In this document: piece by piece, positions 128 to 55,120 of the stretch | Layout: every line of letters begins with the position of its first letter | Position numbering within the stretch: the stretch's first letter is position 1 | IMG/VR virus record: IMGVR_UViG_3300037560_000072 | Span: 1-55,120 of that record | DNA: 55,120 bases | Strand: one strand, 5' to 3' | Source of the DNA: a virus | Lineage: Duplodnaviria > Caudoviricetes | Made by a program: the position numbers and the translations under genes | Notes under the pieces: model-generated | Database searches by the model: none | Told to the model about the DNA's origin: nothing | The model's input: the letters and a program-made list of their open reading frames with translations, nothing else

Positions 128-2288
128 CCTTCCCCCTTTCCCCCGTTCCTGCCCAGTCTTTACCACCTACCACCCCATGGCGTGTGGACGCGACAAGAAC
201 TATGCTCCCTACGTCAGCTCCCACCTCAAGATGCTGAGTGACTACATAGATGGAGACCTCACCTACGAGATCAAGGGTGGCAGCCTCACTATCCAGACAG
301 CACCTCGCCCGCCGAGCTACCCACTTTCCCGGTTGAGCCTGGACATAGAAACGTATGGAATTCTCAAAGGACAGAACCAAACTCAGTTCCATCCTCTCAA
401 GTCCATGGTCCACGACGGTATCAAGAGAAAGGACCTGGTAGTGACTGTGGGCCTTACTTGGCCCAACGAAGAGGACGAACTGGAACACGCTATTTTTATT
501 ATGAACCGGGAGAGTCACCGGAGAAAGCTGTGGTCATGGCTGAAGAAGTGTTACGAAGCAGTATCGGACCTAACGGATGTCGGAGGGTTCGGGTACCTTG
601 GAGGACAGAACATCAAGTTCGATCTGATGTACCTACGCCACGCATACCCGGAGTGCAAGACATGGCTGAACTATCCCCTACCGATCGTAGACCTGATGGT
701 AACGAACTATCTGCTCAACGAAGGCAGACCAGAGAAGAGTCTGAAAGCTTTGGCACCATTACTGCGGATCACACAATACGATGGGGGCTTCACCCAGTAC
801 CCATCCCAGAACGATCCGGCTCTACATCAGTACAACTGTCAGGATACGGCAGCTACCCTCCTTTCTCAAACCAAATTAGAGAGTATGATCCAGACTCTAT
901 ACGGGAAGGACTCACCCAAGCTATCAGAGTTCAATCGCGAATGGTACACGAAGCTGCTGTGGTCAACCGTCTGGATGGAGGAGTCCGGGATAGCAATGAA
1001 TCAGCAGGCTCTAGAAGGGCTCTTGAAATCATACGAGGCACGGATGGTAAAGCTGGAGAGGGGAATCAAGAACCGATGGAACATCAGCCTCCGGGGGAAG
1101 GGCAGTGCAACGTACAAGAGGAAGATAATGGACGAGGCGTGCCAGACGTGTTTAGAGGTATCCCTCCCGATCCCGAAACTACAGAAGACCAACACGACGA
1201 GGGACATCTCATTCAAGGAGGAGAATCGGAACGCATTACTCGATGTACTTCCTGCAACAACAGATTCCTACAAGAAGTTACAGGCAGTGGGGCGTGTACA
1301 CACTGCGGGGGGGACCTTAGATAGATACTTGTATCCATTATTGGTGGGGAGGGGCAAAGGTCACAGCGACCCGACGACTCGCCTAATTAACGGCTTAGTT
1401 TACCCACGCTGGTATCCCGTTCCTTCGGAGTGGGAGGACGGGAGTGTGGGAGGAACCAAACAGTGTCGTATTGTGGCCAAAGGCCCCCCCTGCCAAACCT
1501 TTCCATCCCCAATCAAGAAGTGCATTACCTCTCGGTATGACTACCTCATTTGGTTTGACTACTCACAGATTGAACTCCGAATCGCTGCACTTCTCAGCAA
1601 CGATCCGTGGATGACGGAAGAATTCAGCAAGCCGGACTGTGATTTCCATTTAGGTGCTGCAACTAGGCTGTTCGGAGAGAAGGACGCAAAAAAGTTCCGG
1701 CAGGTTGCCAAGATTCTCAATTTTCTAGTAATTTACCTCGGCGGGGCTGGCCAGTATCAGACTACTCTTCTCCGTGAGAAGGGCATCGTCCGATCTCGCG
1801 GCCAGTGTCAGCAAGACATAAACGACTGGTGGAAGCAAGCTATTCGACTACACAAATGGCAGGAGGAACTCTACGAATTCGTCTGCACCCACGGCTACTT
1901 CCAGCTTCCCCTCGTTGGCCAGTCCCGCCTCTTTCTTGGTAACAGACGAGAAGTAAGAGACCAAATGAAAGAGATTGTGAACATGCCTGTGCAAGCGGTA
2001 GCAGCAAACGTAATGCTATCGGCACAGTTCGAGTTACAGTGGGCCTTCAAACAGAAACGAATGAAGTCCATCCTACCCATAAATGTATACGACGCAGCAG
2101 CCATTGAGTTTCCTAAACAGGAGCTGTACGCAGTACAGCATGAGATGAAAAGAATCCTGCCCGATCCGCCCTACTATCGGGCATTGTGCAAGGTTCTCGG
2201 ACGCAGGCTACCTCTGGCTTGTGAAGTAAAAGTTTACAGGGTGGACAAGAGCGGATTCAATACAAAAATTGAGAAGTATTCCGTTTGA
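1..2288 (+). CDS. polA: DNA polymerase family A with 3'-5' exonuclease; C-terminal part of a ~908-aa UDG-PolA fusion that starts at 54555
   Basis: ExoI DIET, ExoII GQNIKFD, ExoIII YNCQD; motif A DYSQIELR, motif B RQVAKILNFLVIY, motif C variant NVYDA. The frame is open back across the junction. Confidence 0.92.
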   Translation, partial: LSLKKSFSRQGDFTDFRALTAPTPKSIVRLGEVVGPYLSDPTLPPFPRSCPVFTTYHPMACGRDKNYAPYVSSHLKMLSDYIDGDLTYEIKGGSLTIQTAPRPPSYPLSRLSLDIETYGILKGQNQTQFHPLKSMVHDGIKRKDLVVTVGLTWPNEEDELEHAIFIMNRESHRRKLWSWLKKCYEAVSDLTDVGGFGYLGGQNIKFDLMYLRHAYPECKTWLNYPLPIVDLMVTNYLLNEGRPEKSLKALAPLLRITQYDGGFTQYPSQNDPALHQYNCQDTAATLLSQTKLESMIQTLYGKDSPKLSEFNREWYTKLLWSTVWMEESGIAMNQQALEGLLKSYEARMVKLERGIKNRWNISLRGKGSATYKRKIMDEACQTCLEVSLPIPKLQKTNTTRDISFKEENRNALLDVLPATTDSYKKLQAVGRVHTAGGTLDRYLYPLLVGRGKGHSDPTTRLINGLVYPRWYPVPSEWEDGSVGGTKQCRIVAKGPPCQTFPSPIKKCITSRYDYLIWFDYSQIELRIAALLSNDPWMTEEFSKPDCDFHLGAATRLFGEKDAKKFRQVAKILNFLVIYLGGAGQYQTTLLREKGIVRSRGQCQQDINDWWKQAIRLHKWQEELYEFVCTHGYFQLPLVGQSRLFLGNRREVRDQMKEIVNMPVQAVAANVMLSAQFELQWAFKQKRMKSILPINVYDAAAIEFPKQELYAVQHEMKRILPDPPYYRALCKVLGRRLPLACEVKVYRVDKSGFNTKIEKYSV

Positions 2289-2313
2289 CTTCGGCACCGA
2301 ACTGGCCTAAAAT
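2285..2313 (+). promoter_or_regulatory. sigma70-type promoter
   Basis: TTGACT-N17-TAAAAT, followed by a GGAG SD and ATG at 2326. Confidence 0.75.
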
Positions 2314-2325
2314 GGAGAAGAACAC

Positions 2326-2715
2326 ATGCAAGAAGTACGAAAAGCATCAACAAGGCGGTTACGAGTTTACATTGCTGGACCTATAACCAACGGCGGCAAG
2401 GGCTATGACATGAAGTCAATCCACGAGGCCACCAAGGTCCACCTTCGGCTCATCGAACTCGGCTTTGTCTCTCACTGTCCACAGTTGACAGTGTTCTGTG
2501 ACTTCATGGCTCCTAACCGGATACCCTACGGCGTGTGGCTTGACTTGGACCAGTGCTACATTGATGACTGTGATGTTATCCTGCGTCTACCGGGAGAGTC
2601 AAGGGGGGCAGACCGGGAGTGTCAATACGCCGAGTCCATCGGCATTCCAGTTCTCGATGGTCTAGGTAATTTCCTGGCCGAGTACAAAGACTGTTACGGA
2701 AAGGTACCAGTATGA
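2326..2715 (+). CDS. Nucleoside 2-deoxyribosyltransferase-like / DUF4406-type protein
   Basis: VYIAGPIT N-terminus and D..CD.ILRLPGESRGADRE..YA..IGIPV signature. Confidence 0.75.
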   Translation: MQEVRKASTRRLRVYIAGPITNGGKGYDMKSIHEATKVHLRLIELGFVSHCPQLTVFCDFMAPNRIPYGVWLDLDQCYIDDCDVILRLPGESRGADRECQYAESIGIPVLDGLGNFLAEYKDCYGKVPV

Positions 2716-3470
2716 AACGTCTTGTCCGAATAACCCTGCCGGATGTTCACTTTCCATTCCAAGATGATAATCTTCTCAATGCTTGGGCCAATCATGCCGC
2801 CCAACTAAAGCCAGATGGAGTTGACATCTTGGGGGACCTGCTAGACTGCTACGCACTCTCCCGGTTTGACAGGAATCCGAATCGTATAGGAACGTTCCAA
2901 GAAGAGCTGGATCAAGCTAAGGAGTTTCTTGCATTCATACGGGACGTGGTTGGTGATGACTGTGACATCCGAGAGTCTGAGGGTAACCACGAGCACCGAT
3001 TTACCAAAGTCATGTGGAACAAGGCACCTGCACTGGCAACCATTAGAAACCTTACCATTCCTGAACTTCTTGGCCTAAAAAAACTGGGAATCAAGTGGCA
3101 CAGCATTCAAAATCCATACAAAATTCGTGATCTCTGGTACACACACGGTGACATACTACGCAAGCACGCAGGCATGTCGGCCCGTGCTAAGTCAGAGGCA
3201 ATTCACGGATCAGTTATGGTGGGCCACTCCCACCGGGAGGGTTGGTCTCCTTACACAACGTGGGAGGGCATCGAACAGGCTTACGATGCTGGTCATGTAA
3301 GCGATTACACTCAGCTTGACTACGTCCACACCACTCCCAACTGGCAGCAAGGCTGGCCCGTAGTAGAGTTCCTGCCCGAAGGCGTACATGATGTCAGTTT
3401 CGCTCGTGTACACAACGTAGGCAAGAAGAGGATCGTAGTCTACAAGGGTGAGGTCATTGCAAAGCTATGA
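2712..3470 (+). CDS. Calcineurin-like metallophosphoesterase
   Basis: DVH, GDLLD, GNHE, THG and GHSH motifs. Confidence 0.88.
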   Translation: MKRLVRITLPDVHFPFQDDNLLNAWANHAAQLKPDGVDILGDLLDCYALSRFDRNPNRIGTFQEELDQAKEFLAFIRDVVGDDCDIRESEGNHEHRFTKVMWNKAPALATIRNLTIPELLGLKKLGIKWHSIQNPYKIRDLWYTHGDILRKHAGMSARAKSEAIHGSVMVGHSHREGWSPYTTWEGIEQAYDAGHVSDYTQLDYVHTTPNWQQGWPVVEFLPEGVHDVSFARVHNVGKKRIVVYKGEVIAKL

Positions 3471-4086: not shown

Positions 4087-4605
4087 ATGATTCCAAACCA
4101 GATAACAGTACTGATTGACAGCCGGGAGCGTCAGCCTCTTCTCTTTCCCTCATGGATCGAGTGGCACGGTGACCGCACCCTTGAGGCCAGACAGATACAG
4201 GTCCTTGCTAAAGTCGTTACTCTTCCGGCCGGTGACTACACGCTGGAGGGCTACGAAGGCATCTGTATCATTGAGACCAAGAGATCCCTTCGTGAGCTGT
4301 TCAACAACGTCTGTACCGAGTGGCCCCGAGCAGCTAAGGCCCTACACAGACTATCCAAAGCCTGTAAGTATCCCTACGTAGTGTGGGAAATGAGCTGCTC
4401 CGACCTGATGCGTAAGTCCAAACACGTACAGGACCCCCCGCTGGCAATTGATAGGTGGTTGCAAGCCTGCACCCGACTAAATCTGCGACTCATGTGGGTA
4501 GGCTCCCACAGTCAGCCGGGTCCTCGACGTAAGTTAGGCGAACAACTGGTCCGGCTCATGCTAGCCCATATAGAAACAGAGGAGGCAGAGAATGCACTAT
4601 CCTGA
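4087..4605 (+). CDS. ERCC4-domain nuclease (probable resolvase)
   Basis: IDSRE...LPAGDY...IETKRS pattern. Confidence 0.8.
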   Translation: MIPNQITVLIDSRERQPLLFPSWIEWHGDRTLEARQIQVLAKVVTLPAGDYTLEGYEGICIIETKRSLRELFNNVCTEWPRAAKALHRLSKACKYPYVVWEMSCSDLMRKSKHVQDPPLAIDRWLQACTRLNLRLMWVGSHSQPGPRRKLGEQLVRLMLAHIETEEAENALS

Positions 4606-5341
4606 TGGTAGCTATGACCTAAAACAGAGTGACACCAAGCAGACGTTCTCGACGGGTGCCCAACGTGACACCCAGGAATCCAAGTCCAGGATTGATCTCA
4701 TTAGTCCCGTATTCTTGGAGCGACTGGGCATGGTCCTCACCAAGGGGGCCGAGCACTACGGTGAGAGAAACTGGGAGAAGGGGGTGCCACTCTCCCGGTT
4801 ACTGGCATCTACTGCTAGGCACCTGAACCAAACTATTGATGGACTGGAAGACGAGGACCACCCAGCACAGGCAGCGTGGAACCTCATGGCCTACATCCAC
4901 ACGCTGCACAGGATTAAAGCAGGAACTCTCCCGGTAGAGCTGGATGATATGCCGCAAGAAAAAAACTTGGAGCAGGAAGTTGGCCCTCAAATTAAATGCG
5001 GGCGGGAAAAATGTGAGGCGTGTCATCCACACCCCGAGCCGTCTATGCTTGTACCTGTAAAAACCTTGCTGTGTCCATGGTGCAACAAGACGAAGGACTG
5101 GAACCTCTTTAAGAACATAGAACTCAAAGTAGAAATCTGCAACGGCTGCTACTGGAAAGGAGCCCACGAAAAAAATCTGTCAGCGGACTTGACTTCTGAC
5201 AAAAAGGAGCCTACAGTTGGGTATAGACCGGAACGCCTCTTACTTATGTGTACCTACTGCGGATTTAAGTTTGATGTAGAATTTGGGCAAACTGCGTCAG
5301 TCATACACTGCCCCCGATGTATAAGGAAACTACACTCGTGA
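4592..5341 (+). CDS. dATP/dGTP diphosphohydrolase-like (DUF5664) with C-terminal Cys/Zn-ribbon extensions
   Basis: FSTGAQRD...K.RIDLI...VLTKGAEHYGERNWEKG...S..RHL...EDH.A.AAWN; several CxxC pairs at the C-terminus. Confidence 0.8.
   Translation: MHYPDGSYDLKQSDTKQTFSTGAQRDTQESKSRIDLISPVFLERLGMVLTKGAEHYGERNWEKGVPLSRLLASTARHLNQTIDGLEDEDHPAQAAWNLMAYIHTLHRIKAGTLPVELDDMPQEKNLEQEVGPQIKCGREKCEACHPHPEPSMLVPVKTLLCPWCNKTKDWNLFKNIELKVEICNGCYWKGAHEKNLSADLTSDKKEPTVGYRPERLLLMCTYCGFKFDVEFGQTASVIHCPRCIRKLHS
5189..5217 (+). promoter_or_regulatory. sigma70-type promoter
   Basis: TTGACT-N17-TACAGT upstream of the exonuclease gene. Confidence 0.55.
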
Positions 5342-6525
5342 GAACTACTGAATTCGTACTACCGGAGCATGACTCGTCCATCCGACTCGGAGTGAAGGAC
5401 TGCAAGGATGCACACCCCCATGCTGATAGTAAGTTTGGGTGTAACATGCCTCGATCTCTTGACGAGTTCTTCAAGGACATTCGGATAGCTCCCATCAGGT
5501 CGTCTGGTATGCACGACTTCGAGCACTGTCCTCGCAAGTTCCTCTACCGATACAAGCTGGGCATCAAGCCACGTAACTATCAGCCCGCCCTACACATTGG
5601 CACTGTACTCCACTTGGTTCTCCAGTCCATGTTCATGGGCAAGTCCCAAGAGGAATCTCTCGACGCAGCCAAGCAGTACTTCCACCGATTCTGCAACAAG
5701 ATCCTAGCCTCTGCTGATGAGGTTGGGTTCACACCGGGAGGCAAGTCAGTTGAGGGAGTCATTAAGTCTGCCAATGATGACTACCATAAGGCCAGGGCCA
5801 TGGCAATATCTTTCATGTCCTTCAAGCCTTTTGACTGGAGCAAGTGGGAACTCCTCCACACTCCAGATGGTGTTCCCTGTGTCGAGCTGCTTCTGGAGGC
5901 CAAGGTCAGTGGCATCCCAGTTCCCATCATTTCTCCGATGGACCTGGCCCTGCTCCGAAAGGGCACTAAGGATGTCTTCATTGTAGACCACAAGAGTACC
6001 AGTGCCGATACCTTAGCCCGTGCCAAGTCTATCAAGATTAGTTCACAGATAGCCCTATACCGCTTGGTACTACAGTGCCACCTAGATGCTTGGGCTGAGG
6101 AGGACGAGAAGTATCAAGGACTACGTGTCGTTGGATCAATCCACAACATTGTCAAGAGGCCTACGATCAAGTACTGTAAGAAGGACGCTTCCTTTGAGGC
6201 CTACATTGACAGGGTCATTGAGTGGTACAAAGAGAAGCATGAGGAGGACCCCGAACACTCGCCCATCCTTCAACCAGAGACACGCTTCACCGAGCCCACC
6301 CTTACTAAGGAACTGTTCATGCGTCTCCGTCAGCAGGCTCGGGCAGCCCGTGCAGCTCCCAGCCTAGACAGGTTCTACCGAGCGGGTGACTATGCCTGCC
6401 ACAAGTTCAACTCGGTCTGTTCCTACGCCGACCTGTGTGACAGTAACCCAGTTATGTGGCCAGACATCGTTCGTACCAGATTTGACATTGAATTCAGAGA
6501 GGATGAGGAGAAAGAAAATGACTAA
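5317..6525 (+). CDS. PD-(D/E)XK exonuclease, Cas4/RecB-like
   Basis: CPRK..Y, GT.LH, E...D...VDHKS, Q..LY and a C-terminal Cys triad typical of Fe-S-containing Cas4-like nucleases. Confidence 0.85.
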   Translation: MYKETTLVRTTEFVLPEHDSSIRLGVKDCKDAHPHADSKFGCNMPRSLDEFFKDIRIAPIRSSGMHDFEHCPRKFLYRYKLGIKPRNYQPALHIGTVLHLVLQSMFMGKSQEESLDAAKQYFHRFCNKILASADEVGFTPGGKSVEGVIKSANDDYHKARAMAISFMSFKPFDWSKWELLHTPDGVPCVELLLEAKVSGIPVPIISPMDLALLRKGTKDVFIVDHKSTSADTLARAKSIKISSQIALYRLVLQCHLDAWAEEDEKYQGLRVVGSIHNIVKRPTIKYCKKDASFEAYIDRVIEWYKEKHEEDPEHSPILQPETRFTEPTLTKELFMRLRQQARAARAAPSLDRFYRAGDYACHKFNSVCSYADLCDSNPVMWPDIVRTRFDIEFREDEEKEND

Positions 6526-6709: not shown

Positions 6710-6820
6710 CTAGATGTAGCTACTGTGATAGAGAGACTGTCCTAGATGATAGAGTCCAACTGGACGAACCGGGAGAGTTTCTGTGTTTCATCTGCAACGA
6801 AGAGTTGATGGAGGAGTTAG

Positions 6821-7723
6821 ATGACTTCACAAGTAATAACTAGCCCCATCCCGAGTGACCTAGCTGACATCCCCGGAATCGTTACTGGCTTCCGTCCTGT
6901 CCCTGTAAACCGTGGTCGCTATGTACTCTGTGGAAGGGGAGGTTGTGGTAAGAGTACTCTCCTACACAGCAACCCCAAGGCTTTCATCCTTGATCCCGAA
7001 GAGGGCGGGAATACAGTCGATGATCCCAAGGCCATCTGCTACGCTCCCGACCCCGATCAGGTTCCAGAAGGAAGCTACGCAGAAGCCTACATGGACGTGG
7101 CAGACAGGATCATAACCCGATACAAGCAAGGCAAGAGGGAGTTTGAACTACTTGGAATAGATACTCTCGATGAACTAATTGAGGTATTCCTTGTAGACTT
7201 CTGCCGCAAGCACAAGCTGGAAGATCCTCTCGACTACAAGAGTGGAGAAGGTAATGCCTACAGTATAGTCAGGCGAGACATCTTCCGCATACTGGACCGT
7301 GCTCACCGAGCTGGCATGGGGTGGGTTCTCCTCTGTCACGTCACACCCAAGACCATCAGACAGGCAGGTGAAGAGCGAGTGGTGCAGTCCCTTGCAGTAT
7401 CGGATTCCTTCCGTAACGCAGTGTTCCGCAAGTGTGAGCACATGATGTTCATGGACTACTTTACAAAGAACATCAAGGGGCCTCTCATTAAGAAGGTCAT
7501 TAAAGGCAAGACAGTATCTATCCCCGGAGAGATGAAGCAGGAGATATGGAGAGTCCTGAAGACCAAGCCGGGTGGTCTCTGGAAAGGTGAATCAACTAGT
7601 GATGTAAAAGTTCGGGTTCCGTTTCCCGATTCCACTGAAATCCCACGCCTCGGAGGATGGAACGTGGTAACCAAAGCCTACGACGAGGCAGTCAAAACCC
7701 TTACCCAAGGAGTAACGACATGA
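6821..7723 (+). CDS. AAA_24 / Sak4-like P-loop ATPase (recombinase)
   Basis: Walker A GRGGCGKST, D.E.G, Walker B IDTLDE; next to the exonuclease and SSB-like genes. Confidence 0.8.
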   Translation: MTSQVITSPIPSDLADIPGIVTGFRPVPVNRGRYVLCGRGGCGKSTLLHSNPKAFILDPEEGGNTVDDPKAICYAPDPDQVPEGSYAEAYMDVADRIITRYKQGKREFELLGIDTLDELIEVFLVDFCRKHKLEDPLDYKSGEGNAYSIVRRDIFRILDRAHRAGMGWVLLCHVTPKTIRQAGEERVVQSLAVSDSFRNAVFRKCEHMMFMDYFTKNIKGPLIKKVIKGKTVSIPGEMKQEIWRVLKTKPGGLWKGESTSDVKVRVPFPDSTEIPRLGGWNVVTKAYDEAVKTLTQGVTT

Positions 7724-8229: not shown

Positions 8230-8246
8230 ACTTTAACCGGGAGAGT

Positions 8247-8302: not shown

Positions 8303-8776
8303 ATGGCTGATCCACAACGAACAGTATGCACCGCAAGCGTATGGCCTCACCGCCACACCAACGAACTGACTGGCCCGCTGGACGTCAAGATCAGCTACAA
8401 AAACCAGCCACCCATCGTGCGGACCTGGGCTAAGATGAAGTCAGCTTGGATCTACCTAGAACAGCCAGATGAACGGACTAATCTCACAATTATAAGGCTA
8501 TCCTTTGGACACAACCCTGACCCAGGCTATCGGATCAACCAGTGCCGCGTTGGAAAAGATGATACTCTGAAGCTCTATATCAAAGCCAGGATTACCAACA
8601 AGATGGAGCACCCAATTCCGCGTGGCCGGTGGCAAGGAACCTGTCAGTATACTGATGAGTGGTGTGTATTTACATTCCAAGCTATGACCATGAAGGTGAA
8701 GCCCAAGTATGAACCCAAGATCGTTCTACCGGACGGATCTCTCCCGGTTAAGAAAACTAGGATTGTAATACCATGA
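8303..8776 (+). CDS. Hypothetical protein
   Basis: 157-aa ORF with SD GGAG. Confidence 0.6.
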   Translation: MADPQRTVCTASVWPHRHTNELTGPLDVKISYKNQPPIVRTWAKMKSAWIYLEQPDERTNLTIIRLSFGHNPDPGYRINQCRVGKDDTLKLYIKARITNKMEHPIPRGRWQGTCQYTDEWCVFTFQAMTMKVKPKYEPKIVLPDGSLPVKKTRIVIP

Positions 8777-9043: not shown

Positions 9044-9388
9044 ATGTGTAATACATTATGCCCAGAGTGTGCCCAAGAAGAGGGTGCGTGTCTTTGTAAA
9101 GAGGTAATCAAAACTCCTATACCTCTTGGTAAGAGAGTACTGCTAGTAAAGGCTGACGCTGCGGAGGAGAGTAAGGGTGGAATCATACTTCCCTCCGACT
9201 CACGGGAGCAGCCCCTTGAAGCACGGGTAGTTGCAGTGGGACACGAAGTAACCCAGGTTGCCAAGGACGACATGGTTATCTTTGCTGCCTTTGCTGGTAC
9301 CACGTTTACCATTGGTGACCGGGATGTAATCGTATTGGACGAAGAGGACATCATGCTAGTCCTCCGGGAGGTGAAAAGTGACGACTAA
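9044..9388 (+). CDS. groES: Co-chaperonin GroES (start refined to 9044)
   Basis: PLGKRVLL...EESKGGIILP...VVAVG...D.V.F..FAGT...EEDI. Confidence 0.9.
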   Translation: MCNTLCPECAQEEGACLCKEVIKTPIPLGKRVLLVKADAAEESKGGIILPSDSREQPLEARVVAVGHEVTQVAKDDMVIFAAFAGTTFTIGDRDVIVLDEEDIMLVLREVKSDD

Positions 9389-9947
9389 GGAGAAGGTCTA
9401 CTTTACAGTGCGGTTTACAGAAAAGCATGGACTTACCGTACCGGAGTTCCTGGAGGCTCACCCTAACTTCCTGCCCCAAACTGTATATCCCTGCTTCACC
9501 CAGTTGTGCAAGGCAAAAAAGATTCTGGATAGCCGGGAGCGTCGTAAATCAAAAAACAACCGACGTTCTATCGTCTGGATTGACGCCAAGTATGGAGGTA
9601 CCATCCCGGTATGGGGTAGTGGGCAGCCCAGCTACAGCTACAAGAACCGAGCGAAGATTATCATGGACTTACTAGCTATTTTCGGGCCTCTTAGTGTGGC
9701 TGAAATGATGCAGTGTTCAGACAGTCTGAAGCCCATGAGCACCTCCTCTCTAGTGTCTCGATTAGTACTACAGCAATGGCTTCGTAAGACCAATAAGACC
9801 AGACAGAACCAGATCAATCAGACGTGCTGCTTGTATGACCTAACACCTAGAGGTAGACAAGTGAGAGAGGGGGCTCCCAGCCTCTTCAAGAAGACCTATG
9901 ATGCAGCCCCAATCAAGCGTACTGATACGGAGAAGACTCGTGGCTAG
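9378..9947 (+). CDS. Tandem winged-helix DNA-binding protein (putative regulator)
   Basis: Two wHTH-like repeats; the second ends in YDLTPRG (MarR-like wing). Confidence 0.55.
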   Translation: MTTKEKVYFTVRFTEKHGLTVPEFLEAHPNFLPQTVYPCFTQLCKAKKILDSRERRKSKNNRRSIVWIDAKYGGTIPVWGSGQPSYSYKNRAKIIMDLLAIFGPLSVAEMMQCSDSLKPMSTSSLVSRLVLQQWLRKTNKTRQNQINQTCCLYDLTPRGRQVREGAPSLFKKTYDAAPIKRTDTEKTRG

Positions 9948-12900
9948 AAATCGAACCTGGAGCTGCTTGGTAAGGCCTGACGCCCCACCTGTTGAGGGTC
10001 CACTGAGTCAAACGGACCAGTCCGATAGCTCTGCCGAGCAGATGATTGGGGTCCGGGTCCAACAGAACGGGATCGTTCTCGTACAGACTTTGGTTCTCCG
10101 AGAAGTGCTGGATCAATTCCTAGCAGAGATGGCCCAGAGGCTCCCAGAGTCGCTGCAATTAGCTGTACATATTGATCTCGTGCCGGTCCAGGCGGCAGGG
10201 TCCGGACCAATTGTTCCAGCCTAGACACGCGGCGGCGGACTTGCATTGCCTCAACGTCTTGTTCAGAAACCGGGAGAGGGAAGCCAAACTGTATTTGGAA
10301 TCTCTCAGCGATGGAGTTGGCCGCCGAGGCATCGTTCTGGAGGCGTGAGTCCAACCAGTCCTTTCGTATCTCCCTAATCTGGTCACGTCCTTTGACCAGC
10401 GTGGACATCAGCTCCTCCTCAGCCAGCTTGTCCCCAGACCGGATGCCCATGCCCATCTTCACCAGCTCCCACCGGCTAAAGTACCCCTTCAAAGTACCCT
10501 GTCGAGTGTACACCGGTATCCGGCCATCTGGTGCGGGGTTGTTGTAGTCAGCGTAGGACCTGCCGAGGACCTTGGAGGCTCGGACTCCAATGTCACCGCC
10601 CAGTGACGGTGGAAGCAGCCCAGCAGCCCGGAGCATTCCGGTACCACCAGGGATCAGCAGGGGGGTAGCCCTCATCAGGGATGAGAAGTCCCCAGTGGTA
10701 GCACTCTGGGCTATCGCTCCCATGATGCCTATGGCTGGTGGAACAATTGGGAACCCACCGAACGGTCCCTCTGTCCGGGACTGGAACGTTGGTACCGCAC
10801 CGCCCACCAGAGCGTCAGAGGCATCTACCCCAAGGTATCGTCCCAGCTCCAGGGCCATGATGGACCCAGCAATCATGCGAGCGAAGGTGCCTGGGTTCTT
10901 ACCCATCACGTTCATCTTCTTGCCGGTCAGTGGATCAATGTCATTTACGCCCAGGTTGAAGGCTGTATGGGTAGCAAACTCCAGGAACCTAAGTGGGAAC
11001 TGAGCAAGCTGACGGACCAACGCATTGCGTCCCAGTAGAAAGTAGGGGGTATTCTGTGGACCAGTCAAGAACTGGGTCTCCTCGACTACCCTCGCAGCGA
11101 ACTTATGAGCCATCTCTGCTGGCATCTTGGCTCGCCTAGCATGGATCAGTGCTGCCTCCCATGTGACCAGGCGGTTGGTTGTCTCTGTAGCAGTGAACAG
11201 TGACATCATAGACGCACTGATCTTCTTCTGCAAGTTCATCACCTTGCTGGGTGCCAACGACTGAACACTAACCACGTTCCGGAGAGTACTCTCCAATGCC
11301 TCATCGGTAAGGGGAGCTGATGCTATGCCAGACTTACCAAATGCCGGGTAGGCAAACCGTATGGCATCGTCGTGGCCCATCTTCTTAGGCCCAAAACGAG
11401 CCGCGAAGTACTTGTGGGACTTCCTCATAGCCTCATTAAGACCCTTGGCCGTAGTCACAGGACCGAGAGTGGGAGCGGTAGTGAGAACCATCTGTAGCAT
11501 ATTCTTTAGGGCAGATGCTGGGTTCAAACCAAGAGTGGAAAGGTAGAAGTAACCTGCCGCCTTCTGACTCACGTTCACATAGGAATATGCACTACGAGAA
11601 TTTTCCAGGTGGGTATGGATGATCTTTGACATAGACTCACCAAGTACACGACGAACCTTGGGAGTCTGAGTCCAAGCAGAGAGCTGCATCATATTCTGTT
11701 CCCAGGCTTGTGCCTTGAGAGCATTCTTGAAAGTACCGCGTCCCAGAGCCAGTGGGATGTAAGTATTCTCCAACATCTCCGCACGCATCTTTGCATAGGG
11801 GGCACCCATACGTCCTCCCTTGCCAAGCTCTTTGAGGTCACGGAGATGGTCCATTATCTTCACACCACCACCCTTGATGGTCCACCCATAAGTACTGCCC
11901 ATAGTCTGTGCGTAGTTGTTCATGGTGGTCATTAGCTTCATGGTGTACTGCTTGGGAGTGGCCTCCGACAGTATAGAACTAAAGGCTTGGCCCTCCTGCT
12001 TACTCATAACCGCCGGGTATTTCTCCTTAATCTGGTCAAAGGTCGCCCTCTCTAGCTTATGGAGTACCGGCTGGGTAAGTACACCCTCCGCTCTGGCCAC
12101 TGCAAGTACCTTGAACTTCGATGCTTCCTTCAACTTATTCAAGGCTGCCCTATCAACTAGCCCATGCTGAGCCATTATATCTAGTTCGGGTAGGCTAGGC
12201 ATCATAGCATTGTGACGACGGTAACTCTCTGGACCTAGCCACCGCTCTGCCTTCCTTCCTGCCTGCCGAGCGAAAGCCTTTCCGCTAGATGAATCAGTCA
12301 TGGCCTTCATCATAGCCTGGAAATCTTCCTCACTCCGTATGAGTCTATGTGGATAGTAGTGTTCTATCTTACGTGGATCAGTAAGATACTCAGCCCAGGT
12401 TTCGGTTATCTCATCAAGCTGACCAGACTTACGAAGCCTAGCCATGGTAGCCATGATCGCCTTGCGGTTCTCCTGACTGCCAAAGGACTCACCGTACATG
12501 TCATCGAGCACGCCACGCATACCCTGTGCAAACTGACGTAACTGTGGTGTCATCTGGGCTTCGAGGTTGGGCATAAGAGTACCAACACTCGGCAACTCTA
12601 CACGAGAGGCCCCCTTACCCAGTGTAATAACTCCATCCTTTCCCTCCCATCCACGAAGAGGCCGGTGTAGTCCGTCCAACCAGGACGACACCATAAGCTG
12701 CTCTTTCTGTGAGGGAAGAGTACCAGTGCCCGCCCTATATTGCCTAAGCAAGGTGGACATGCGACCATTGTACTTGGTACGGAAGTTGGTAACGTCGTGT
12801 ATAATCTTACCATAGTCCTCAAACACACCTGTTCCCCTGTACAGGGCTGGCATTGAAGAGAGCCTACCCATAATAGGAAACCGCTTGAGCATGGACTTTA

Positions 12901-18159: not shown

Positions 18160-18172
18160 GTTCTCTCCCGGT

Positions 18173-38398: not shown

Positions 38399-38781
38399 TA
38401 TGGTTTCTCTGTTGAGGTATTGTCCTTCTTATGCCACTTGGCTTTCTGTGCCATAGCTGACTGGGTGACCGTAGTGGTTGCCTCCTTACCTTTCTTCTTG
38501 GCACGCTTGGTCTTGTAATCTTTGTAGGACTTCTCCAGTTCATGGCCAGCGGCGGCACCAGCAAGACCAGCCTTGAGAAGACGGCCAGCCCTACCACGAC
38601 CGGACAGGGCAGCCGATGCACCAGCTAGGCCCTTCGTTAGGGTGGTTTCTCTACCGGGAGAGTCGTCTTTTGTCTGCTCGGACGGACGCGGACGCTTAGG
38701 TGACTGCTTGGGTGGTTGGATCGTGTCAGAGAGTTTCTTCTTTCGACGCCTGGTTGATTTGTAGATTGGGATGTTTGCCAT
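38398..38781 (-). CDS. Lys/Arg-rich protein
   Basis: 127 aa, translationally coupled. Confidence 0.55.
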   Translation of the reverse strand: MANIPIYKSTRRRKKKLSDTIQPPKQSPKRPRPSEQTKDDSPGRETTLTKGLAGASAALSGRGRAGRLLKAGLAGAAAGHELEKSYKDYKTKRAKKKGKEATTTVTQSAMAQKAKWHKKDNTSTEKP

Positions 38782-38960: not shown

Positions 38961-38974
38961 TTTGCTCTCCCGGT

Positions 38975-44780: not shown

Positions 44781-46214
44781 TCATGTGAATATCCTCCCCG
44801 GCACCGCACACTCTCCCGGTTTAGAGGGAACAGGACCATTTGGAACATCTTTAGTGGCCTCCTCTGTATAGGTCACCTCTTCCCCACTATCGACTGCTTC
44901 CTCTTTGGCAGAAAGTAGTTGTCCACTTGAATCACAATCATTGATCTCTAGGTTATGTGAGCCGTCGTCTCGCTCCTCAAAAGAAGTTATTACAGAAAAG
45001 TGCAGGATAGGACTTGAGATACTGCCCAAAAACCGTACAGCAGGAACCTTTCTACTTTCCTGCAAAGATAAATCCTGCCTCTCGTGTAGCCCCAAAGGCA
45101 ACTCTGACTCTCCCAAAGTTTCTGCACATTCTATGGCTTTATTCAGCCACTCGTCTGGGGGATTAAGATCAGAAGGCCAGTATGACACCACACCTGGAAG
45201 GTCAAGGTTAAACCTATTAATCACTCCCGCTGTAATCTTGTCGCCTACAGTATCATACATAATATTACGTGGTAGACCAGTGCATGGCTCACTGGGAGGT
45301 CCGTTGAACATCCAATTTCTTTGTATGAAATACTGAGGAACTAGTGGTGGTATTCCTCGCTCCAAATTCTTACTTACTACTTCCAGTAATGCTTGGGGCA
45401 TAACAATATTGTAATACATCGGGCGAACTACTTCCAAATCCCACTTCCTATGCCCATCATTTCCGGATATATGACGTAGTCTACTCCAGTCAAAACGCTT
45501 GGTCGATGGAGATGTGAATCCAGGATAAGCCCTACCTGCCACCAGAAAAAGCATGGTCCTATAGTTCTCATCTCTTTCCAAAGTTACATCTTGCGTATAT
45601 GGACTGTCTCTATACAGTCCACGCATCATATCCTCAATAAAAGACGATAAGCTAGTTTTGCCAAGTAACCGCCTGAATTCGACTCCACTGGGAGTAGTAT
45701 CTTTAGGATGAAGTAGGGACGTAGCTCCCACAATCATTCTATCCACTCTAAATAGGCTATCTTTATGGTTACCTATAACCATACTGTTGGCTACCCGAGG
45801 TATCACTCCTCCCGGAAACTCCTTCTCTATAAGCTCACTTTGGCAGTTAATCCTAATTGGACAGTATCCGTACTGTACCTCATCTTCTGGGAATGATGGA
45901 GATAGTCTCAAGTGTGTACTTTTCCTACTACCTACGTTGATTATCCAACACCCTAATTCGTCACGCCAGCAGCTCCTCAAGTCGGGAACCCCGATCCACA
46001 TAGCCCCAAGAAGTGAATCCTTAGTTTCGGACCACGGACTACAACTTACCTTGTTTGATGTTATATCAGGGGGTCTTAGTTCATTCATAACCTTAGTAAC
46101 AACTCTACTTACTTGGTTCCCCAAACTTGGGTTTAACGCCGTAGTACTATTCCAATCCAAAGGACGGATGATTCTACTACTACTCATTACTTGCTTCCTC
46201 CAATCCTGATACAA
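44781..46214 (-). CDS. Unknown 477-aa protein coupled to the JAB gene (candidate E2, ligase or substrate)
   Basis: Overlaps the JAB stop; no confidently recognised domain. Confidence 0.6.
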   Translation of the reverse strand: MYQDWRKQVMSSSRIIRPLDWNSTTALNPSLGNQVSRVVTKVMNELRPPDITSNKVSCSPWSETKDSLLGAMWIGVPDLRSCWRDELGCWIINVGSRKSTHLRLSPSFPEDEVQYGYCPIRINCQSELIEKEFPGGVIPRVANSMVIGNHKDSLFRVDRMIVGATSLLHPKDTTPSGVEFRRLLGKTSLSSFIEDMMRGLYRDSPYTQDVTLERDENYRTMLFLVAGRAYPGFTSPSTKRFDWSRLRHISGNDGHRKWDLEVVRPMYYNIVMPQALLEVVSKNLERGIPPLVPQYFIQRNWMFNGPPSEPCTGLPRNIMYDTVGDKITAGVINRFNLDLPGVVSYWPSDLNPPDEWLNKAIECAETLGESELPLGLHERQDLSLQESRKVPAVRFLGSISSPILHFSVITSFEERDDGSHNLEINDCDSSGQLLSAKEEAVDSGEEVTYTEEATKDVPNGPVPSKPGECAVPGRIFT

Positions 46215-47251
46215 AGATTCTTAGCCTGGGGAGTTGGACATATATCTTTACACCACGACTCCAGACCAGCATACTGGGAACTCGTCATAATATACCAGTG
46301 GTTCCGATAATATACAAGACGAAGATTCTTCAGATGTTCAGGACAAATCTTGAGTGCTCCCAGTATATCCAAGGAATCCTCGACATAATCCGAATCGACA
46401 GTGTCTGCAATGTCTACAATAGTTTGGGCAACTGTAGTCTTAGTAGTGAGTCGGGTACGTTTGGATTTAGTCTTGAGTTTCTTGGTTGGCTCAGGAATCT
46501 TCAATAGTTCTTCAAGACTTCTGTTACCACTCCTAGAGAATACAACTGCTACCCTCTCAATATCGCCAATGCTTCCGTCCAGCAATTGAAACACTTTACC
46601 TGCAATGGCCCCATTGATTGTGTACGATCCATCCCGACCAAAGACTAAGTGAAGTCCAGACTTCTCTGGTTCAGCCCAATCATCAATATCGGTTTGGCTA
46701 GGACTGCATGGCTCTCCCGGATGAATATGTATTGTTCCAATCCATCGTGCCTTCTCTTGGAACTTTCCCATCTCCTCCGTAGTGTCTTTCCAAGTAACCC
46801 CACCAGGTGTACCTGTCTGTGGTGGTACGTGATATGTCCAGCCAGTTAGGTCCCTATTACGTCCAACCAACATAAGGACCTCTCTATTGTACTTGGAAAA
46901 GAACACGTCAAACAACCAAGCTAACTCGGACATGGGAGGAAAGTTAGGCCAGTCAATCTTGTCAACATAGACATTTGACTCATCTTCGTCCAGCTTAGCT
47001 GGAGCTAGACATTCAATAAGTCCAAACCTGTGCTCGTAGACCCTCCTATCATCTCCCATTACAAGCCTAGTAGTCGAAAGGTTCACCGTGTTCAAGTCAT
47101 CTAATCCAAGTAGGTCCTGACTCTTACCAGGCATAGTTGACTTAATAGCTGTAGTGGACACATGAGAAGACCGAGGCCATTCTGGATTCCACCCGGGATC
47201 TTCGTATCCATTCTCATCATCGTCGTTGAATAACCAGTCTAAGTCTATCAA
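46187..47251 (-). CDS. JAB/MPN+ metalloprotease (deubiquitinase-like)
   Basis: NREV (Glu), P.Q, IGTIHIHP...SQTDIDD = E...HxH-x6-SxxD. Confidence 0.85.
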   Translation of the reverse strand: MIDLDWLFNDDDENGYEDPGWNPEWPRSSHVSTTAIKSTMPGKSQDLLGLDDLNTVNLSTTRLVMGDDRRVYEHRFGLIECLAPAKLDEDESNVYVDKIDWPNFPPMSELAWLFDVFFSKYNREVLMLVGRNRDLTGWTYHVPPQTGTPGGVTWKDTTEEMGKFQEKARWIGTIHIHPGEPCSPSQTDIDDWAEPEKSGLHLVFGRDGSYTINGAIAGKVFQLLDGSIGDIERVAVVFSRSGNRSLEELLKIPEPTKKLKTKSKRTRLTTKTTVAQTIVDIADTVDSDYVEDSLDILGALKICPEHLKNLRLVYYRNHWYIMTSSQYAGLESWCKDICPTPQAKNLCIRIGGSK

Positions 47252-48149: not shown

Positions 48150-48163
48150 TACTCTACCTTTCA

Positions 48164-48297
48164 AACCGGGAGAGGAAAGAACCAAGAGGGGGGAGGCGTG
48201 TCGCCGGATCACTACCACCACGGGACAAGATCATCAGGGGACTTGCCTCTATGTGGCGGGCAGGACTCGAACCTGCCTTTCCTCTCCTCTCCCAGTT
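48164..48297 (-). ncRNA. Circularly permuted tRNA-mimic RNA (YrlA/Y-RNA-like)
   Basis: 5' to 3' on the - strand: closing stem, T-arm GCAGG-TTCGAGT-CCTGC, acceptor-like stem CCGCCAC/GTGGTGG closed by a loop, TA, D-arm GTG-ATCCGGCGA-CAC, pyrimidine tract, closing stem. Confidence 0.65.
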
Positions 48298-49002: not shown

Positions 49003-49109
49003 CTTTTTTCTTAATTTTTTACGGCCGATAACTACTTAGATGTGTAGAACCGGGAGAGTTCCGCTGTGTCTAGTACCAAGAACTACCCGCAAGCGGTAAT
49101 TAACTTTGC

Positions 49110-49424: not shown

Positions 49425-49664
49425 CTATCTCTCTCGAAGAACTGCCTCCACTGCTGCCAGCCTCTGAGCCACCTCCGACAGGCCCTGATTCATGCCTTTG
49501 ATGTCCCCCCGAAGAAGCCTAAGATGTTCGATAGCAGTCACCTCAACATAGCTGGTCATCTCAGCCCGGGAGATAAGATCAGGAGCCATGGTCAACCAGA
49601 GGACCGTCAGGCCCACTAGTACGCCCGCTATAACCTTGGCAGCTACCTCTCCCGGTTTAGTCAT
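49425..49664 (-). CDS. Membrane protein with a TM helix and coiled coil (holin/spanin-like?)
   Basis: MTKPGE start with ATGA overlap; one hydrophobic helix. Confidence 0.45.
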   Translation of the reverse strand: MTKPGEVAAKVIAGVLVGLTVLWLTMAPDLISRAEMTSYVEVTAIEHLRLLRGDIKGMNQGLSEVAQRLAAVEAVLRER

Positions 49665-52306: not shown

Positions 52307-52831
52307 CTACATTACCCGCAAAAGGGTAAGTTCCACGAATAGCTTCATTGTATTCGTATCGTTCGTTAGAGGAACCCGTGAAACCACCTTCACAGACAGG
52401 CTCCCATTAGCAGAAACCTCTTCGCCACCAGTCGTATTAAGAGGTACATTCCGCACCTCATTCATCGTCATGCCCTTCAACTGGGCAGCACACACAACCG
52501 AAGACCCGCTCAGCACGCTTAAACTCAGTCTACCGTTCGGACTCCGTACAACACCGTTCGCGTCGTCCATCAAAGTTGCTTCGCACTTCAGTACTCGAAA
52601 CTTCCACGGAGCATCTGAACTAAACAGCGATACAGTTTGACTGTCATCGGCCGTAGCCGTAAAATAAGCCACCATCTTGACGGACTGACCAAACGCCGTA
52701 TTTCCATCTGCATTCGTTAGTCCGCCGGGAGAGTGTAGCATACTCTCGGGGTCCTGGGTTACAACGCCCAGTACCCCATCAGCAGTCAGGTTGACCTTAA
52801 CACCAGTTCTACCAACTTCGTTCAATGACAT
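52307..52831 (-). CDS. Putative capsid decoration-like protein
   Basis: 174 aa; shares PWKFRVL with 53373-53969. Confidence 0.5.
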   Translation of the reverse strand: MSLNEVGRTGVKVNLTADGVLGVVTQDPESMLHSPGGLTNADGNTAFGQSVKMVAYFTATADDSQTVSLFSSDAPWKFRVLKCEATLMDDANGVVRSPNGRLSLSVLSGSSVVCAAQLKGMTMNEVRNVPLNTTGGEEVSANGSLSVKVVSRVPLTNDTNTMKLFVELTLLRVM

Positions 52832-53986: not shown

Positions 53987-54032
53987 AAAAAATGTGGGGG
54001 AGGTCGGAAATCAATCCCGTCGCCTCCCCCAC
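53987..54032 (-). terminator. Terminator-like hairpin in a 5' leader
   Basis: GTGGGGGAGG / CCTCCCCCAC 10-bp stem followed by ATTTTTT on the - strand, between the promoter and the first gene. Confidence 0.65.
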
Positions 54033-54051
54033 TCTCCCGGTTTCTATCCTT

Positions 54052-54126: not shown

Positions 54127-54155
54127 TTGACTCGCCGCAAAACGCCGCCTATAAG
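54127..54155 (+). promoter_or_regulatory. sigma70-type promoter (rightward; replication operon)
   Basis: TTGACT-N17-TATAAG with an AT-rich upstream segment. Confidence 0.7.
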
Positions 54156-54198
54156 AAGAGTGCCGCGACCGCCGATCGCCGCCCGGAAACGAACGAAA

Positions 54199-54573
54199 AT
54201 GCCCACGAAAGAAAACCCATATGAGTGTCAACCTCCACTTCCCCAGAAGGAAAAAACTCCACCTCCGACTTGGGACCTGGAAAAAAAGGACCTGCTCTAT
54301 CGCGTGAGCCAGTTGGAGAAGTCCCTAGAAATCTTGTACTTGAGTATGGGTGAAGGTAAGGAAACATCTATAGCTCAGTTAGAAGAAAAAGTCAGTACCT
54401 GTCTCAATTCCATTATTACTCTTTCACAGGGTAAAGAAACTCTTGCATTCCACATGCTCGAATTTCAAACCAAACTCAAAGAGACCATACGAGCTGTCGA
54501 GCGTCTGGCAACGGGCCACTCTATTGGTTGTCTGGGCCTGCCAACGGAGGAATCATGGGACCCGCCTGTGTAG
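54199..54573 (+). CDS. Hypothetical coiled-coil protein (start refined to 54199)
   Basis: Heptad-rich; follows the promoter. Confidence 0.5.
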   Translation: MPTKENPYECQPPLPQKEKTPPPTWDLEKKDLLYRVSQLEKSLEILYLSMGEGKETSIAQLEEKVSTCLNSIITLSQGKETLAFHMLEFQTKLKETIRAVERLATGHSIGCLGLPTEESWDPPV

Positions 54574-55120
54574 CCAACTGCACTGCCTGCCCGCTGCACC
54601 TACAGTGCAAGACCGCCTGCATACCAGCAACGTGGTTTAACCGGGAGAGTGGTACCTGGCCACAGCCTGGTTTTTGTACTCAGCACGATCGAGCCCTCTA
54701 CATCATTGGTGAGGCTCCCGGTTGGAACGAGGATCAGAAGGGCGAGTGCTGGATCGGTAAGGCTGGCAGCATCCTCAAGACTGCCTACATCGAATACTTC
54801 GAGTTTCAACACCGAGTAGATGTCTTCCTATCCAACGCCGTCCGCTGCCACCCGCCCGGCAACAAGAATCCTACCAGGACCCAGCTCAAGATGTGCCAGG
54901 GATTCTACCTGGCCGACATCGTTTACCTTCAACAGCTCTACGATCAGGTCATCATCCTATGCTGTGGAGCACCAGCAACTCAATCCGTGCTCGCCCTGTC
55001 CCTAAAGAAGTCATTCTCTCGCCAAGGTGACTTCACCGACTTCCGTGCGTTGACCGCCCCAACGCCGAAGTCCATCGTCCGCTTGGGGGAAGTGGTCGGA
55101 CCATACCTTAGTGACCCGAC
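54555..55120 (+). CDS. Uracil-DNA-glycosylase family-4-like domain; N-terminus of the UDG-PolA fusion (continues at position 1)
   Basis: SD GGAGG at 54546. Translation MGPACVANCTACPLH...IIGEAPGWNEDQKG..WIGKAG...LSNAVRCHPPGNKNP...C; in frame with 57..2288, which supplies TYHP. Confidence 0.88.
   Translation, partial: MGPACVANCTACPLHLQCKTACIPATWFNRESGTWPQPGFCTQHDRALYIIGEAPGWNEDQKGECWIGKAGSILKTAYIEYFEFQHRVDVFLSNAVRCHPPGNKNPTRTQLKMCQGFYLADIVYLQQLYDQVIILCCGAPATQSVLALSLKKSFSRQGDFTDFRALTAPTPKSIVRLGEVVGPYLSDP

Follow-up and report, generated by a model that had tools for sequence, protein, structure and literature searches.

A dispersed, oriented, G-rich word in a phage genome and its relatives: a possible Chi-like signal

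The stretch of DNA considered here (IMG/VR record IMGVR_UViG_3300037560_000072, 55,120 nucleotides, called the window below) is an entire virus record. Its first 127 bases are identical to its last 127, which marks it as a circular assembly with 54,993 unique bases. It is a complete phage genome for which no cultured relative was found. Encoded in it are a fusion of uracil-DNA-glycosylase and family-A DNA polymerase (UDG-PolA), an ERCC4-like nuclease, a RecB-like exonuclease, a Sak4-like annealing ATPase, a P4-family helicase, a MazG-like pyrophosphohydrolase, the terminase large subunit (TerL) and large structural genes that form a podovirus-like set. Scattered through these genes, and to some extent between them, is a nine-letter word, CCGGGAGAG, and it is the likely function of this word that is at issue.

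Searches of cultured phages with the window DNA, its TerL, its putative capsid protein and the TerL of the Chi-type relative described below gave no match, and the window PolA matched there at 25% identity or less. A TerL profile run against 185,579 species genomes revealed no relative. One public sequencing run, labelled marine sediment metagenome, contains the window DNA and may be its source, and no RNA runs are listed. Scans of the window for tRNAs and Rfam families gave nothing, and the literature search for the word itself retrieved unrelated primers and constructs only.

The word in the window

There are 37 exact matches to CCGGGAGAG in the window, 21 on the plus and 16 on the minus strand, evenly dispersed (Table 1). 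The first-pass annotation had listed 36 of them, all at correct coordinates, and one more (15255-15263, minus strand) completes the set; its count of 25 for the extended form, AACCGGGAGAG, has to be raised to 26. The duplicated terminal 127 bases hold no site. In one hundred dinucleotide-preserving shuffles the word turned up 0.64 times on average and never more than 3 times. Among all 6- to 12-mers, screened with an order-2 Markov model, the CCGGGAGAG family is the sole strongly over-represented word, with a ratio of observed to expected (O/E) of about 67 and a density of 0.67 per kb. Exact copies dominate near-copies, as only 23 one-mismatch variants are seen vs about 14 expected by chance. 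The flanks are biased: A stands at −2 in 30 and at −1 in 31 of the 37 copies, T at +1 in 21, and the 5′ flank is rich in T, which extends the consensus to t.t.AACCGGGAGAGt. Nine positions are invariant and two more strongly biased, and the information content, by our own calculation from the site alignment, is about 21 bits.

Most copies are inside genes. With a greedy call of open reading frames (ORFs), 31 of the 37 lie fully within ORFs, in all three frames and both orientations, which bears out the earlier remark that copies in coding sequences are read in different frames as NRES, PGE, LSR, SPG or LPV. Intergenic DNA makes up about 6% of the window and is about three-fold enriched for sites. 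Judged against the local gene, 11 copies run in the sense and 19 in the antisense direction, and the remaining 7 are intergenic or at a gene edge. This agrees with the earlier claim that orientation is independent of transcription. The claim that selection acts on the nucleic acid was to fall if the enrichment vanished under a codon-aware model. It persists: when the codons of 61 genes were shuffled synonymously 1000 times, with amino-acid sequence and per-gene codon usage kept constant, the mean was 1.15 and the maximum 6 in-gene copies, compared with 31 observed. Since the sites are independent of reading frame and of transcription direction, selection is at the DNA level, and the orthologous sites described below uphold this further.

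An origin of the word in base composition, codon usage, amino-acid repeats or an assembly or adapter artefact has a negligible chance of being correct. The shuffles and Markov models refute it, as does placement in all frames and on both strands, and the artefact, which had been named as the other possible undoing of the claim, is excluded by orthologous sites inside intact genes of independently assembled relatives. The word is a real, strongly selected and family-wide feature.

Table 1. Exact copies of the word, from an exact-match scan of the window with placement against ORFs, followed by the genes considered in the text
Feature	Position	Strand	Remark
CCGGGAGAG copy	506..514	+	within UDG-PolA gene, sense
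CCGGGAGAG copy	2590..2598	+	
CCGGGAGAG copy	2856..2864	-	
CCGGGAGAG copy	4790..4798	-	
CCGGGAGAG copy	4926..4934	-	
CCGGGAGAG copy	6769..6777	+	intergenic
CCGGGAGAG copy	8237..8245	+	intergenic
CCGGGAGAG copy	8739..8747	-	
CCGGGAGAG copy	10270..10278	+	
CCGGGAGAG copy	15255..15263	-	absent from the first-pass list
CCGGGAGAG copy	15541..15549	+	
CCGGGAGAG copy	15874..15882	+	
CCGGGAGAG copy	18163..18171	-	intergenic
CCGGGAGAG copy	19172..19180	+	
CCGGGAGAG copy	19791..19799	+	
CCGGGAGAG copy	23208..23216	+	
CCGGGAGAG copy	23256..23264	-	
CCGGGAGAG copy	26447..26455	+	
CCGGGAGAG copy	28972..28980	+	
CCGGGAGAG copy	31713..31721	+	
CCGGGAGAG copy	32233..32241	-	within terminase large subunit gene
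CCGGGAGAG copy	33051..33059	+	within terminase large subunit gene
CCGGGAGAG copy	34433..34441	+	
CCGGGAGAG copy	34812..34820	-	
CCGGGAGAG copy	35096..35104	-	ATG at 35088 begins 7 nt downstream
CCGGGAGAG copy	38654..38662	+	
CCGGGAGAG copy	38965..38973	-	
CCGGGAGAG copy	41180..41188	-	
CCGGGAGAG copy	44031..44039	+	
CCGGGAGAG copy	44811..44819	-	
CCGGGAGAG copy	46712..46720	-	
CCGGGAGAG copy	48166..48174	+	
CCGGGAGAG copy	49050..49058	+	intergenic
CCGGGAGAG copy	49647..49655	-	
CCGGGAGAG copy	52725..52733	+	
CCGGGAGAG copy	54032..54040	-	
CCGGGAGAG copy	54641..54649	+	
UDG-PolA fusion: family-A DNA polymerase with uracil-DNA-glycosylase domain	54528-55120 joined to 1-2288	+	about 917 aa
ERCC4-like (PD-(D/E)XK) nuclease	4087..4605	+	motifs DSRE...GDY...ETK read in the translation
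RecB/Cas4-like PD-(D/E)XK exonuclease	5317..6525	+	phage recombination set
Sak4-like single-strand annealing ATPase	6821..7723	+	phage recombination set
Two tandem winged-helix-like halves, candidate binder	9378..9947	+	found in the window's close clade only
Helix-turn-helix (HTH) protein with basic tail, candidate binder	35505-35945		
P4-family SF3 helicase ('primase C-terminal' family) with C-terminal RFX-type winged helix	36062..37411	-	

Words, sites and spacing in the phage family

With TerL as query, IMG/VR yielded first 8 and later 10 relatives, and metagenome contigs 17 loci; G001-G005 are whole records, and four fragments of 5-9 kb (L002, L004, L031, L032) are too short for word calling. 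A wider TerL profile, built from database proteins, had 117 matches, with 51 loci at 23-88% TerL identity. The screen covered those of the new loci that reach 9 kb, 31 in all, and thereafter seven records, some whole and some partial. Each lineage has its own word. G001, whose TerL is 88% identical to that of the window, has 29 copies of AAGCCGGGAGAG and G002 has 21 of ACCGGGAGAGA. G003 and L043 share AATCGGGAGAGAGT (22 copies in G003). G004, L038, L039 and L008 have GCAGAGACAGG and variants of it (36 copies in G004), and TTGTGGGTGAGATT is the word of G005, L040 and L041, with 10 copies in 22 kb. There are 29 copies of CTGCGGGGC in G316, 31 of CTGCGGAGG in G317 and 21 of AGTGGGGGG(A) in G318, the last being present also in six further loci at 5-10 copies each. 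GCTGGTGGGG occurs 35 times in G006 and 27 times in G007.

Where the word is clear, its density is 0.44-1.0 per kb and its O/E (order-2 Markov) 27-890. The word classes (CCGGGAGAG, GCAGAGACAGG, GTGGGTGAGA, CTGCGGGGC, CTGCGGAGG, AGTGGGGGG and GCTGGTGGGG) are all G-rich and asymmetric, and on a quick TerL tree they are clade-specific. The number of specified positions is 10-11 in G001, G004 and G006 and about 14 in G005. The words of G004 are, like those of the window, placed without regard to transcription (16 sense, 16 antisense, 11 intergenic or gene-edge). One complete relative, G319, has no dispersed word, and the screen gave nothing clear for L140, L141, L156, L160 and L173. G315, a relative of 53.6 kb, has no word of 9-11 nt and has instead a 21-nt element, GCCATTGGTGGGGACCGGTTG, in 10 copies, five per strand, which may be an element of a different kind. 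A dispersed word is lacking in all three cultured control phages with P4-type helicases, of which one carries a tandem 9-nt repeat and another a promoter-like word.

Individual sites can be followed between the window and G001, which are syntenic and about 74% identical in nucleotide sequence. In the DNA that can be aligned there are 26 window sites, and the exact 9-mer is kept in G001 at 16 of them. Site 18163 is kept too, across an alignment gap, which makes 17 shared sites. Chance would account for the exact retention of about 1.7 (0.74^9 x 26, our calculation). At position −1 of the shared sites the window has A where G001 has G in 14 cases; both have G in two, and in one the window has T and G001 has G. 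Comparison of G003 with the window shows T in place of the first C at all five sites where the remaining core is kept. The retention at orthologous positions, together with the uniform flank changes, leads to the deduction from these alignments that the sites are old and individually maintained, and that they shifted together when the specificity of their reader shifted. Few cases of co-evolution between a recognition system and its sites are as clean as this joint change of flank at 14 orthologous sites. Between word classes the position is different. No window site is within 15 nt of a G004 site among 18 that could be mapped, nor of a G005 site among 7, and thus it is the density of the current word, not its place, that is maintained.

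Spacing is even, and it is even strand by strand. The coefficient of variation of gaps between window sites of the same strand is 0.54 for the plus (P=0.002) and 0.64 for the minus strand (P=0.06). It is below 0.75 in 13 of the 14 strand sets from seven word classes, which either have no site positions in common or are unrelated words. With Fisher's method over the seven classes the combined P is 6e-8 per strand and 0.02 when strand is ignored. Same-strand spacing averages about 2.6-3.4 kb. It follows that the function reads orientation and acts in both directions along the genome. Per-strand evenness argues for a machine that tracks along DNA and can come from either side. It tells against transcription, against packaging or ejection in one direction, and against a protein that simply coats the DNA. 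[Close convergent pairs, plus then minus, were considered as a further feature (8 vs 2 in the window, 6 vs 2 in G001) but there is no excess of them in G004 and they were set aside.]

Readings of the word

A distant branch of the same TerL-defined family hoards GCTGGTGG, which is the canonical Chi octamer (PMC3784561, PMC5041463). It is present 39 times in the 51.0 kb of G006, 38 times in the 51.6 kb of G007, and 19 and 16 times in the 25.8 and 32.7 kb of G008 and G009, with the reversed word as control giving 4, 4, 4 and 1. Its density in these four, 0.5-0.7 per kb, is like the 0.67 per kb of the window's word. Nearly all copies are extended to GCTGGTGGGG (35 in G006 vs 0.26 expected). By a rough estimate of our own, there is about a 1% chance that the octamer would turn up within one of some ten G-rich word classes. 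For G006-G009 the word would equal the known Chi of the host group if their hosts use GCTGGTGG; the window's word equals no known Chi.

Among the functions listed in the first-pass annotation (genome organisation, silencing, packaging or ejection, Chi-like protection) the last is favoured, though not firmly, by the octamer of this branch and by per-strand evenness. The reading put forward here, tentatively and with the prospect that it may well be wrong, is that the word is a Chi-like signal matched to the RecBCD/AddAB-class enzyme of the host. The host helicase-nuclease would read the oriented word while unwinding DNA, and at the word would switch from destruction of linear DNA to production of a recombinogenic 3′ tail. 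A phage without a recognisable inhibitor of the enzyme, and with a RecB-like exonuclease, Sak4 and an ERCC4-like nuclease of its own, would have accumulated the host's word. With words on both strands, about every 2.6-3.4 kb on each, an enzyme arriving from either direction would meet a correctly oriented copy after little loss of DNA, whether it entered at a packaged end, a replication tail or a rolling-circle tail. The 3′ tail could then feed circularisation or recombination-dependent replication, and related phages on other hosts would carry the words of those hosts. We infer both the host enzyme that reads the word and all the steps downstream of it.

Several features other than the octamer support this Chi-like reading. 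All word classes are G-rich and asymmetric, as known Chi words are. Per-strand evenness is to be expected of a travelling machine that reads one orientation, and the occurrence of both orientations around a circular assembly, with no link to transcription, fits ends that arise anywhere. That density and not place is maintained between word classes also supports it, as does the lack of an evident conserved phage-encoded reader, discussed below. So does the presence of the exonuclease and Sak4 in the window when no Gam/Abc2-type inhibitor was found in 83 of its ORFs with PHROGs or in 70 ORFs with Pfam. RecBCD inhibitors are small and fast-evolving, and failure to detect one is not the same as its absence.

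The comparison with E. coli is instructive. In its phages Chi is over-represented in those with a recombinase and no inhibitor (median O/E 2.5), most strongly in T5-like and P1-like phages, and group medians are given as 2.3-4.8, with 0.2 Chi per kb in the E. coli chromosome (PMC3784561). The window resembles the inhibitor-lacking phages of E. coli (lambdoid, P1-like and T5-like) in having an oriented, G-rich, asymmetric word, recombination genes with no recognised inhibitor, and no link to transcription. It differs in the length of its word, 9-11 nt and not 5-8, and in an O/E of about 67 and not 2-5. The word is about three times denser than Chi in the E. coli chromosome, and is on both strands all round the genome, whereas phage Chi is concentrated between origin and packaging site. 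Single-position 'dialects' of Chi are described among related Enterobacteriaceae (PMC8022716), and Chi activity is reported to depend on flanks (PMC5041463). Experimentally known Chi words are given for five bacterial species, and as not inferable for most Proteobacteria (PMC8022716).

There is a good deal to be set on the other side. Words of the window's family have 9-11 specified nucleotides, and about 14 in G005, vs 5-8 for known Chi, and a host would need hundreds of copies of so long a word; an 11-nt Chi variant is read by a recC mutant. The O/E of about 67 is an order of magnitude over anything reported for Chi. For the dialects of the window and G001, at 74% identity, host enzymes would have to read the flanks differently. 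Word classes track the phage tree, which is equally expected for a phage-encoded reader. The primase, DnaB and SSB of the word-less G319, a single case, hint at phage replication and not at the host. Finally, no bacterial genome enriched in the word was found among those examined.

That last result comes from scans that are weak and cover a very small share of possible hosts. In 185,579 species genomes (GTDB), searched for two 11-mers within 30 nt, there were 82 loci, all local tandem repeats except for one metagenome-assembled genome labelled Dehalococcoidia (G012, locus L112), which has about 300 copies of the window's word. Many of these form a palindrome, CTCTCCCGG-AA-CCGGGAGAG, which contains the window's full 11-mer and is a REP-like element. 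As the genome was found through the word itself, it is no independent evidence of a host link. Several of 301 genomes of its class seemed enriched relative to the reversed word, most clearly G306 (70 vs 3, 23-fold). G306 was rejected as an enriched host when an order-3 Markov model of its 12 largest contigs (353 kb) gave 12.8 expected for 13 observed, and the case shows the reversed-word control to be misleading for genome enrichment. [The top word in those contigs is that of a repeat family, GTCATTGCGAG-like, with 33 copies in 353 kb vs 0.4 expected.] A scan of IMG/VR for two copies within 30 nt gave 105 loci, all of them local tandem repeats, and since it missed the known relatives it is uninformative. 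ESM Atlas, queried with the beta-propeller and winged-helix proteins of the window, gave no host clue.

If the reader is encoded by the phage, the obvious places to look are its DNA-binding proteins. The protein at 9378-9947 is predicted to have two winged-helix-like halves (pLDDT 64, about 80 in the C-terminal half), with weak matches to MarR/PadR and a weak full-length match to the two-winged-helix protein ScpB. In IMG/VR its tandem winged-helix profile found four already known relatives only. A profile of the HTH protein at 35505-35945 had no match among PDB sequences. Both had been proposed as binders in the first-pass annotation; tblastn found a homologue of neither in the five other word-bearing family members compared (G316, G317, G006, G007, G315). 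Of these five, G006 and G007 alone have a homologue of the window helicase, whose match to TIGR01613 is 173 bits (cut-off 108.7). G316 has a DnaB-type replicative helicase in place of the P4-type, and yet both it and the window are word-bearing. Neither G006 nor G316 gave a match to an HTH or winged-helix family. The three candidate DNA-binding proteins vary between word classes solely in step with phylogeny. Only two non-structural proteins, UDG-PolA and the ERCC4-like nuclease, occur in every one of the six word-bearing genomes that were compared, with the RecB-like exonuclease and Sak4 in most of the six. Because neither candidate binders nor helicase type are conserved among word-bearing genomes, no conserved phage-encoded reader is evident at the level of these comparisons, where divergence past detection is possible.

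A credible minority reading is nevertheless that of an orientation-reading system encoded by the phage. One form of it, which we consider unlikely, has a sequence-specific nickase or primosome that nicks or primes at the word, whichever strand it is on, and supplies 3′ ends to the family-A polymerase in place of a primase, with the reader co-evolving with the word to give lineage 'dialects'. Toprim/DnaG or AEP primase families were not detected in the window, G006 or G316 (112 ORFs for the latter two), and the word-less G319 has a PHROG 'DNA primase' match, a DnaB-like helicase and SSB. [A 477-aa protein at 44781-46214 was considered as a primase; its predicted fold, at pLDDT 44.5, is unusable.] Consistent with a nickase or primosome, G319 also lacks both UDG-PolA and the small, fast-evolving ERCC4-like nuclease, the per-strand spacing of 2.6-3.4 kb is within the range of Okazaki-fragment lengths, and concerted flank shifts match a co-evolving phage protein. 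The winged helix of the helicase is its fastest-evolving domain, 49% identical between window and G001 vs 87% for the ATPase. This domain is weakened as the reader, however, by the different basic residues in the helicase recognition helices of G003 and L043, which have the same dialect, as well as by the change of helicase type in G316. The primase link depends on one word-less genome and on failure to detect, ERCC4-type nucleases are as a rule structure-specific, and the canonical Chi octamer in one branch is left unexplained. Extended to phage-autonomous address labels, where synthesis would start on either strand and drifting private dialects would isolate lineages in mixed infections, the idea is again rather improbable; the octamer would in that case have arisen by convergence on a G-rich word or would serve two purposes.

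Doubtful to about the same degree is a monomeric phage-encoded binder that marks or coats the genome, either as a stoperator-like repressor or silencer or as a self-tag for packaging or organisation. The candidates would be the tandem winged-helix and HTH proteins. The two predicted halves of the former suit an asymmetric site, and its first recognition helix is invariant in the four CGGGAGAG-core genomes and altered in G004. At about 21 bits the word would be near-unique to the phage within a host of a few Mb. Cluster A mycobacteriophages provide a counterpart for a binder in number (20-40), length (9-13 bp), asymmetry, synteny and drifting dialects, with 20-30 asymmetric 13-bp stoperators in genomes of about 50 kb, syntenic and with variants that track phage phylogeny (PMC6550527). 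Stoperators, however, follow transcription, are mostly intergenic and serve temperate immunity with a known repressor. In the window, ORFs hold 31 of the 37 sites, neither there nor in G004 does orientation depend on transcription, and PHROGs and Pfam scans of the window found no integrase, partition or repressor family. A binder also predicts evenness regardless of strand, the observed evenness being per strand; its two candidates are the proteins for which no homologue was detected in the five genomes above, and all the co-variation is confounded with phylogeny.

DNA uptake sequences offer another likeness, being words of 9-12 nt that occur about once per kb on either strand, also within coding DNA, and have a conserved core with dialect flanks (PMC3630211). 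They are a property of competent bacterial chromosomes, read by pilin or an uptake receptor. The present word, by contrast, is carried by a complete phage genome, and the scans found no word-saturated bacterial genome. A molecular drive of this kind, in which a transmission step such as initiation of packaging by terminase, or recombination in co-infection, prefers word-bearing DNA and so spreads the word by bias and not by any benefit of the single site, is very improbable. It would accommodate 0.5-1 words per kb on both strands in all frames, the conserved core and the phylogeny-tracking dialects, and segments without homologues in relatives do carry few sites, which is not significant. We know of no such mechanism in phages, however, one-way packaging along a concatemer does not predict evenness in both orientations, and the octamer of one branch is unexplained.

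Three other dispersed or repeated elements in phages bear comparison. The 17-bp repeats of Cluster O mycobacteriophages are like the word in having more than 30 invariant dispersed copies, about a third of them coding (PMC4351075), and unlike it in being palindromic, a 7-bp inverted repeat with a 3-bp spacer, the window's word being asymmetric and spaced strand-specifically. The window's only cluster of repeats (41.0-41.4 kb) is made of other sequences and the word is dispersed. In the P4 family, origin iterons are short asymmetric repeats clustered at the origin beside the helicase and bound by its C-terminal domain; the likeness is further undercut by the dispersed word of G316, with its DnaB-type helicase. 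T5-like and some Pseudomonas phages have site-specific nicks at short dispersed words, at positions kept among relatives, and these nicks are few and on one strand only.

The word thus works most like Chi, and is most likely an unusually extreme, long form of the Chi-like word of its host. Membership of the Chi class cannot be claimed: it calls for recognition by the host's RecBCD/AddAB-class enzyme, the nuclease being attenuated according to orientation, and for a word that exceeds oligonucleotide composition in the host core genome and is polarised with replication, and the length is atypical. If it is true that phages without an inhibitor hoard the word of their host as strongly as here (O/E of 30 to several hundred), the top oriented word of a phage would predict the Chi of an uncultured host, a new handle for linking phages to hosts for which this family supplies at least seven candidate words. 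If the reader is instead encoded by the phage, the family would have a previously undescribed genome-marking system with rapidly evolving specificity.

Other genes and sequence features

The UDG-domain and PolA ORFs share one frame across the circular junction of the window, and in G316 the same fusion is a single ORF of 869 aa. Homologues of the ERCC4-like nuclease in G006 and G316 match Pfam ERCC4, which makes the window protein a probable junction or flap nuclease. Two long minus-strand ORFs in 34060-35512 (34496-35512 and 34060-35088) overlap by 593 nt in different frames. Both have tblastn relatives, the downstream part of the first is of low complexity, and the true extent of the first is probably about 35090-35512, though there may be a frameshift.

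On the minus strand at 46187-48600, JAB-like, ThiF-like and ThiS-like genes lie together and form a ubiquitin-like conjugation set. G316 also has ThiF and JAB matches, and the window ThiF has a weak match of PRTRC type. A beta-propeller protein of YWTD/LDL-receptor-class-B type (49661-50524, minus strand) has no homologue in the relatives and no copy of the word inside it, and its gene is probably a recent acquisition. Between 41000 and 41450, amid tiny ORFs, small repeats are clustered (11-nt x2, 22-nt x2.3 and two 17-nt palindromic copies of GACTGCCATTATGGCAG); they may be an origin or regulatory region unrelated to CCGGGAGAG.

GCGC is absent from the window, where about 57 would be expected, and is nearly or wholly so from G001 (2 vs 61), G003 (0 vs 119) and G004 (0 vs 76). 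Counts are 0 in G317, 8 in G318, 11 in G316 and 14 in G319, and the site is common (354-535) in G006, G007 and G315. The depletion is a classic restriction-avoidance signature for a HhaI-type site. Missing 6-bp palindromes differ per genome, the window being without CTGCAG, ATGCAT, CCTAGG and GAGCTC.

The linear contigs of G001 and G003 break, at the start of the former and the end of the latter, within about 20 nt of each other, at a point that matches ~26795-26816 of the window and falls within the putative capsid gene, very close to its 3′ end. A true genome end or a recurrent assembly break could account for the shared position. There are (TA)n runs in G004, L008 and L039. G006 has, at L235:10772-11791, a protein with the N-terminal domain of the major tropism determinant (Mtd_N, E=9e-15), a match hinting at the target of a diversity-generating retroelement.

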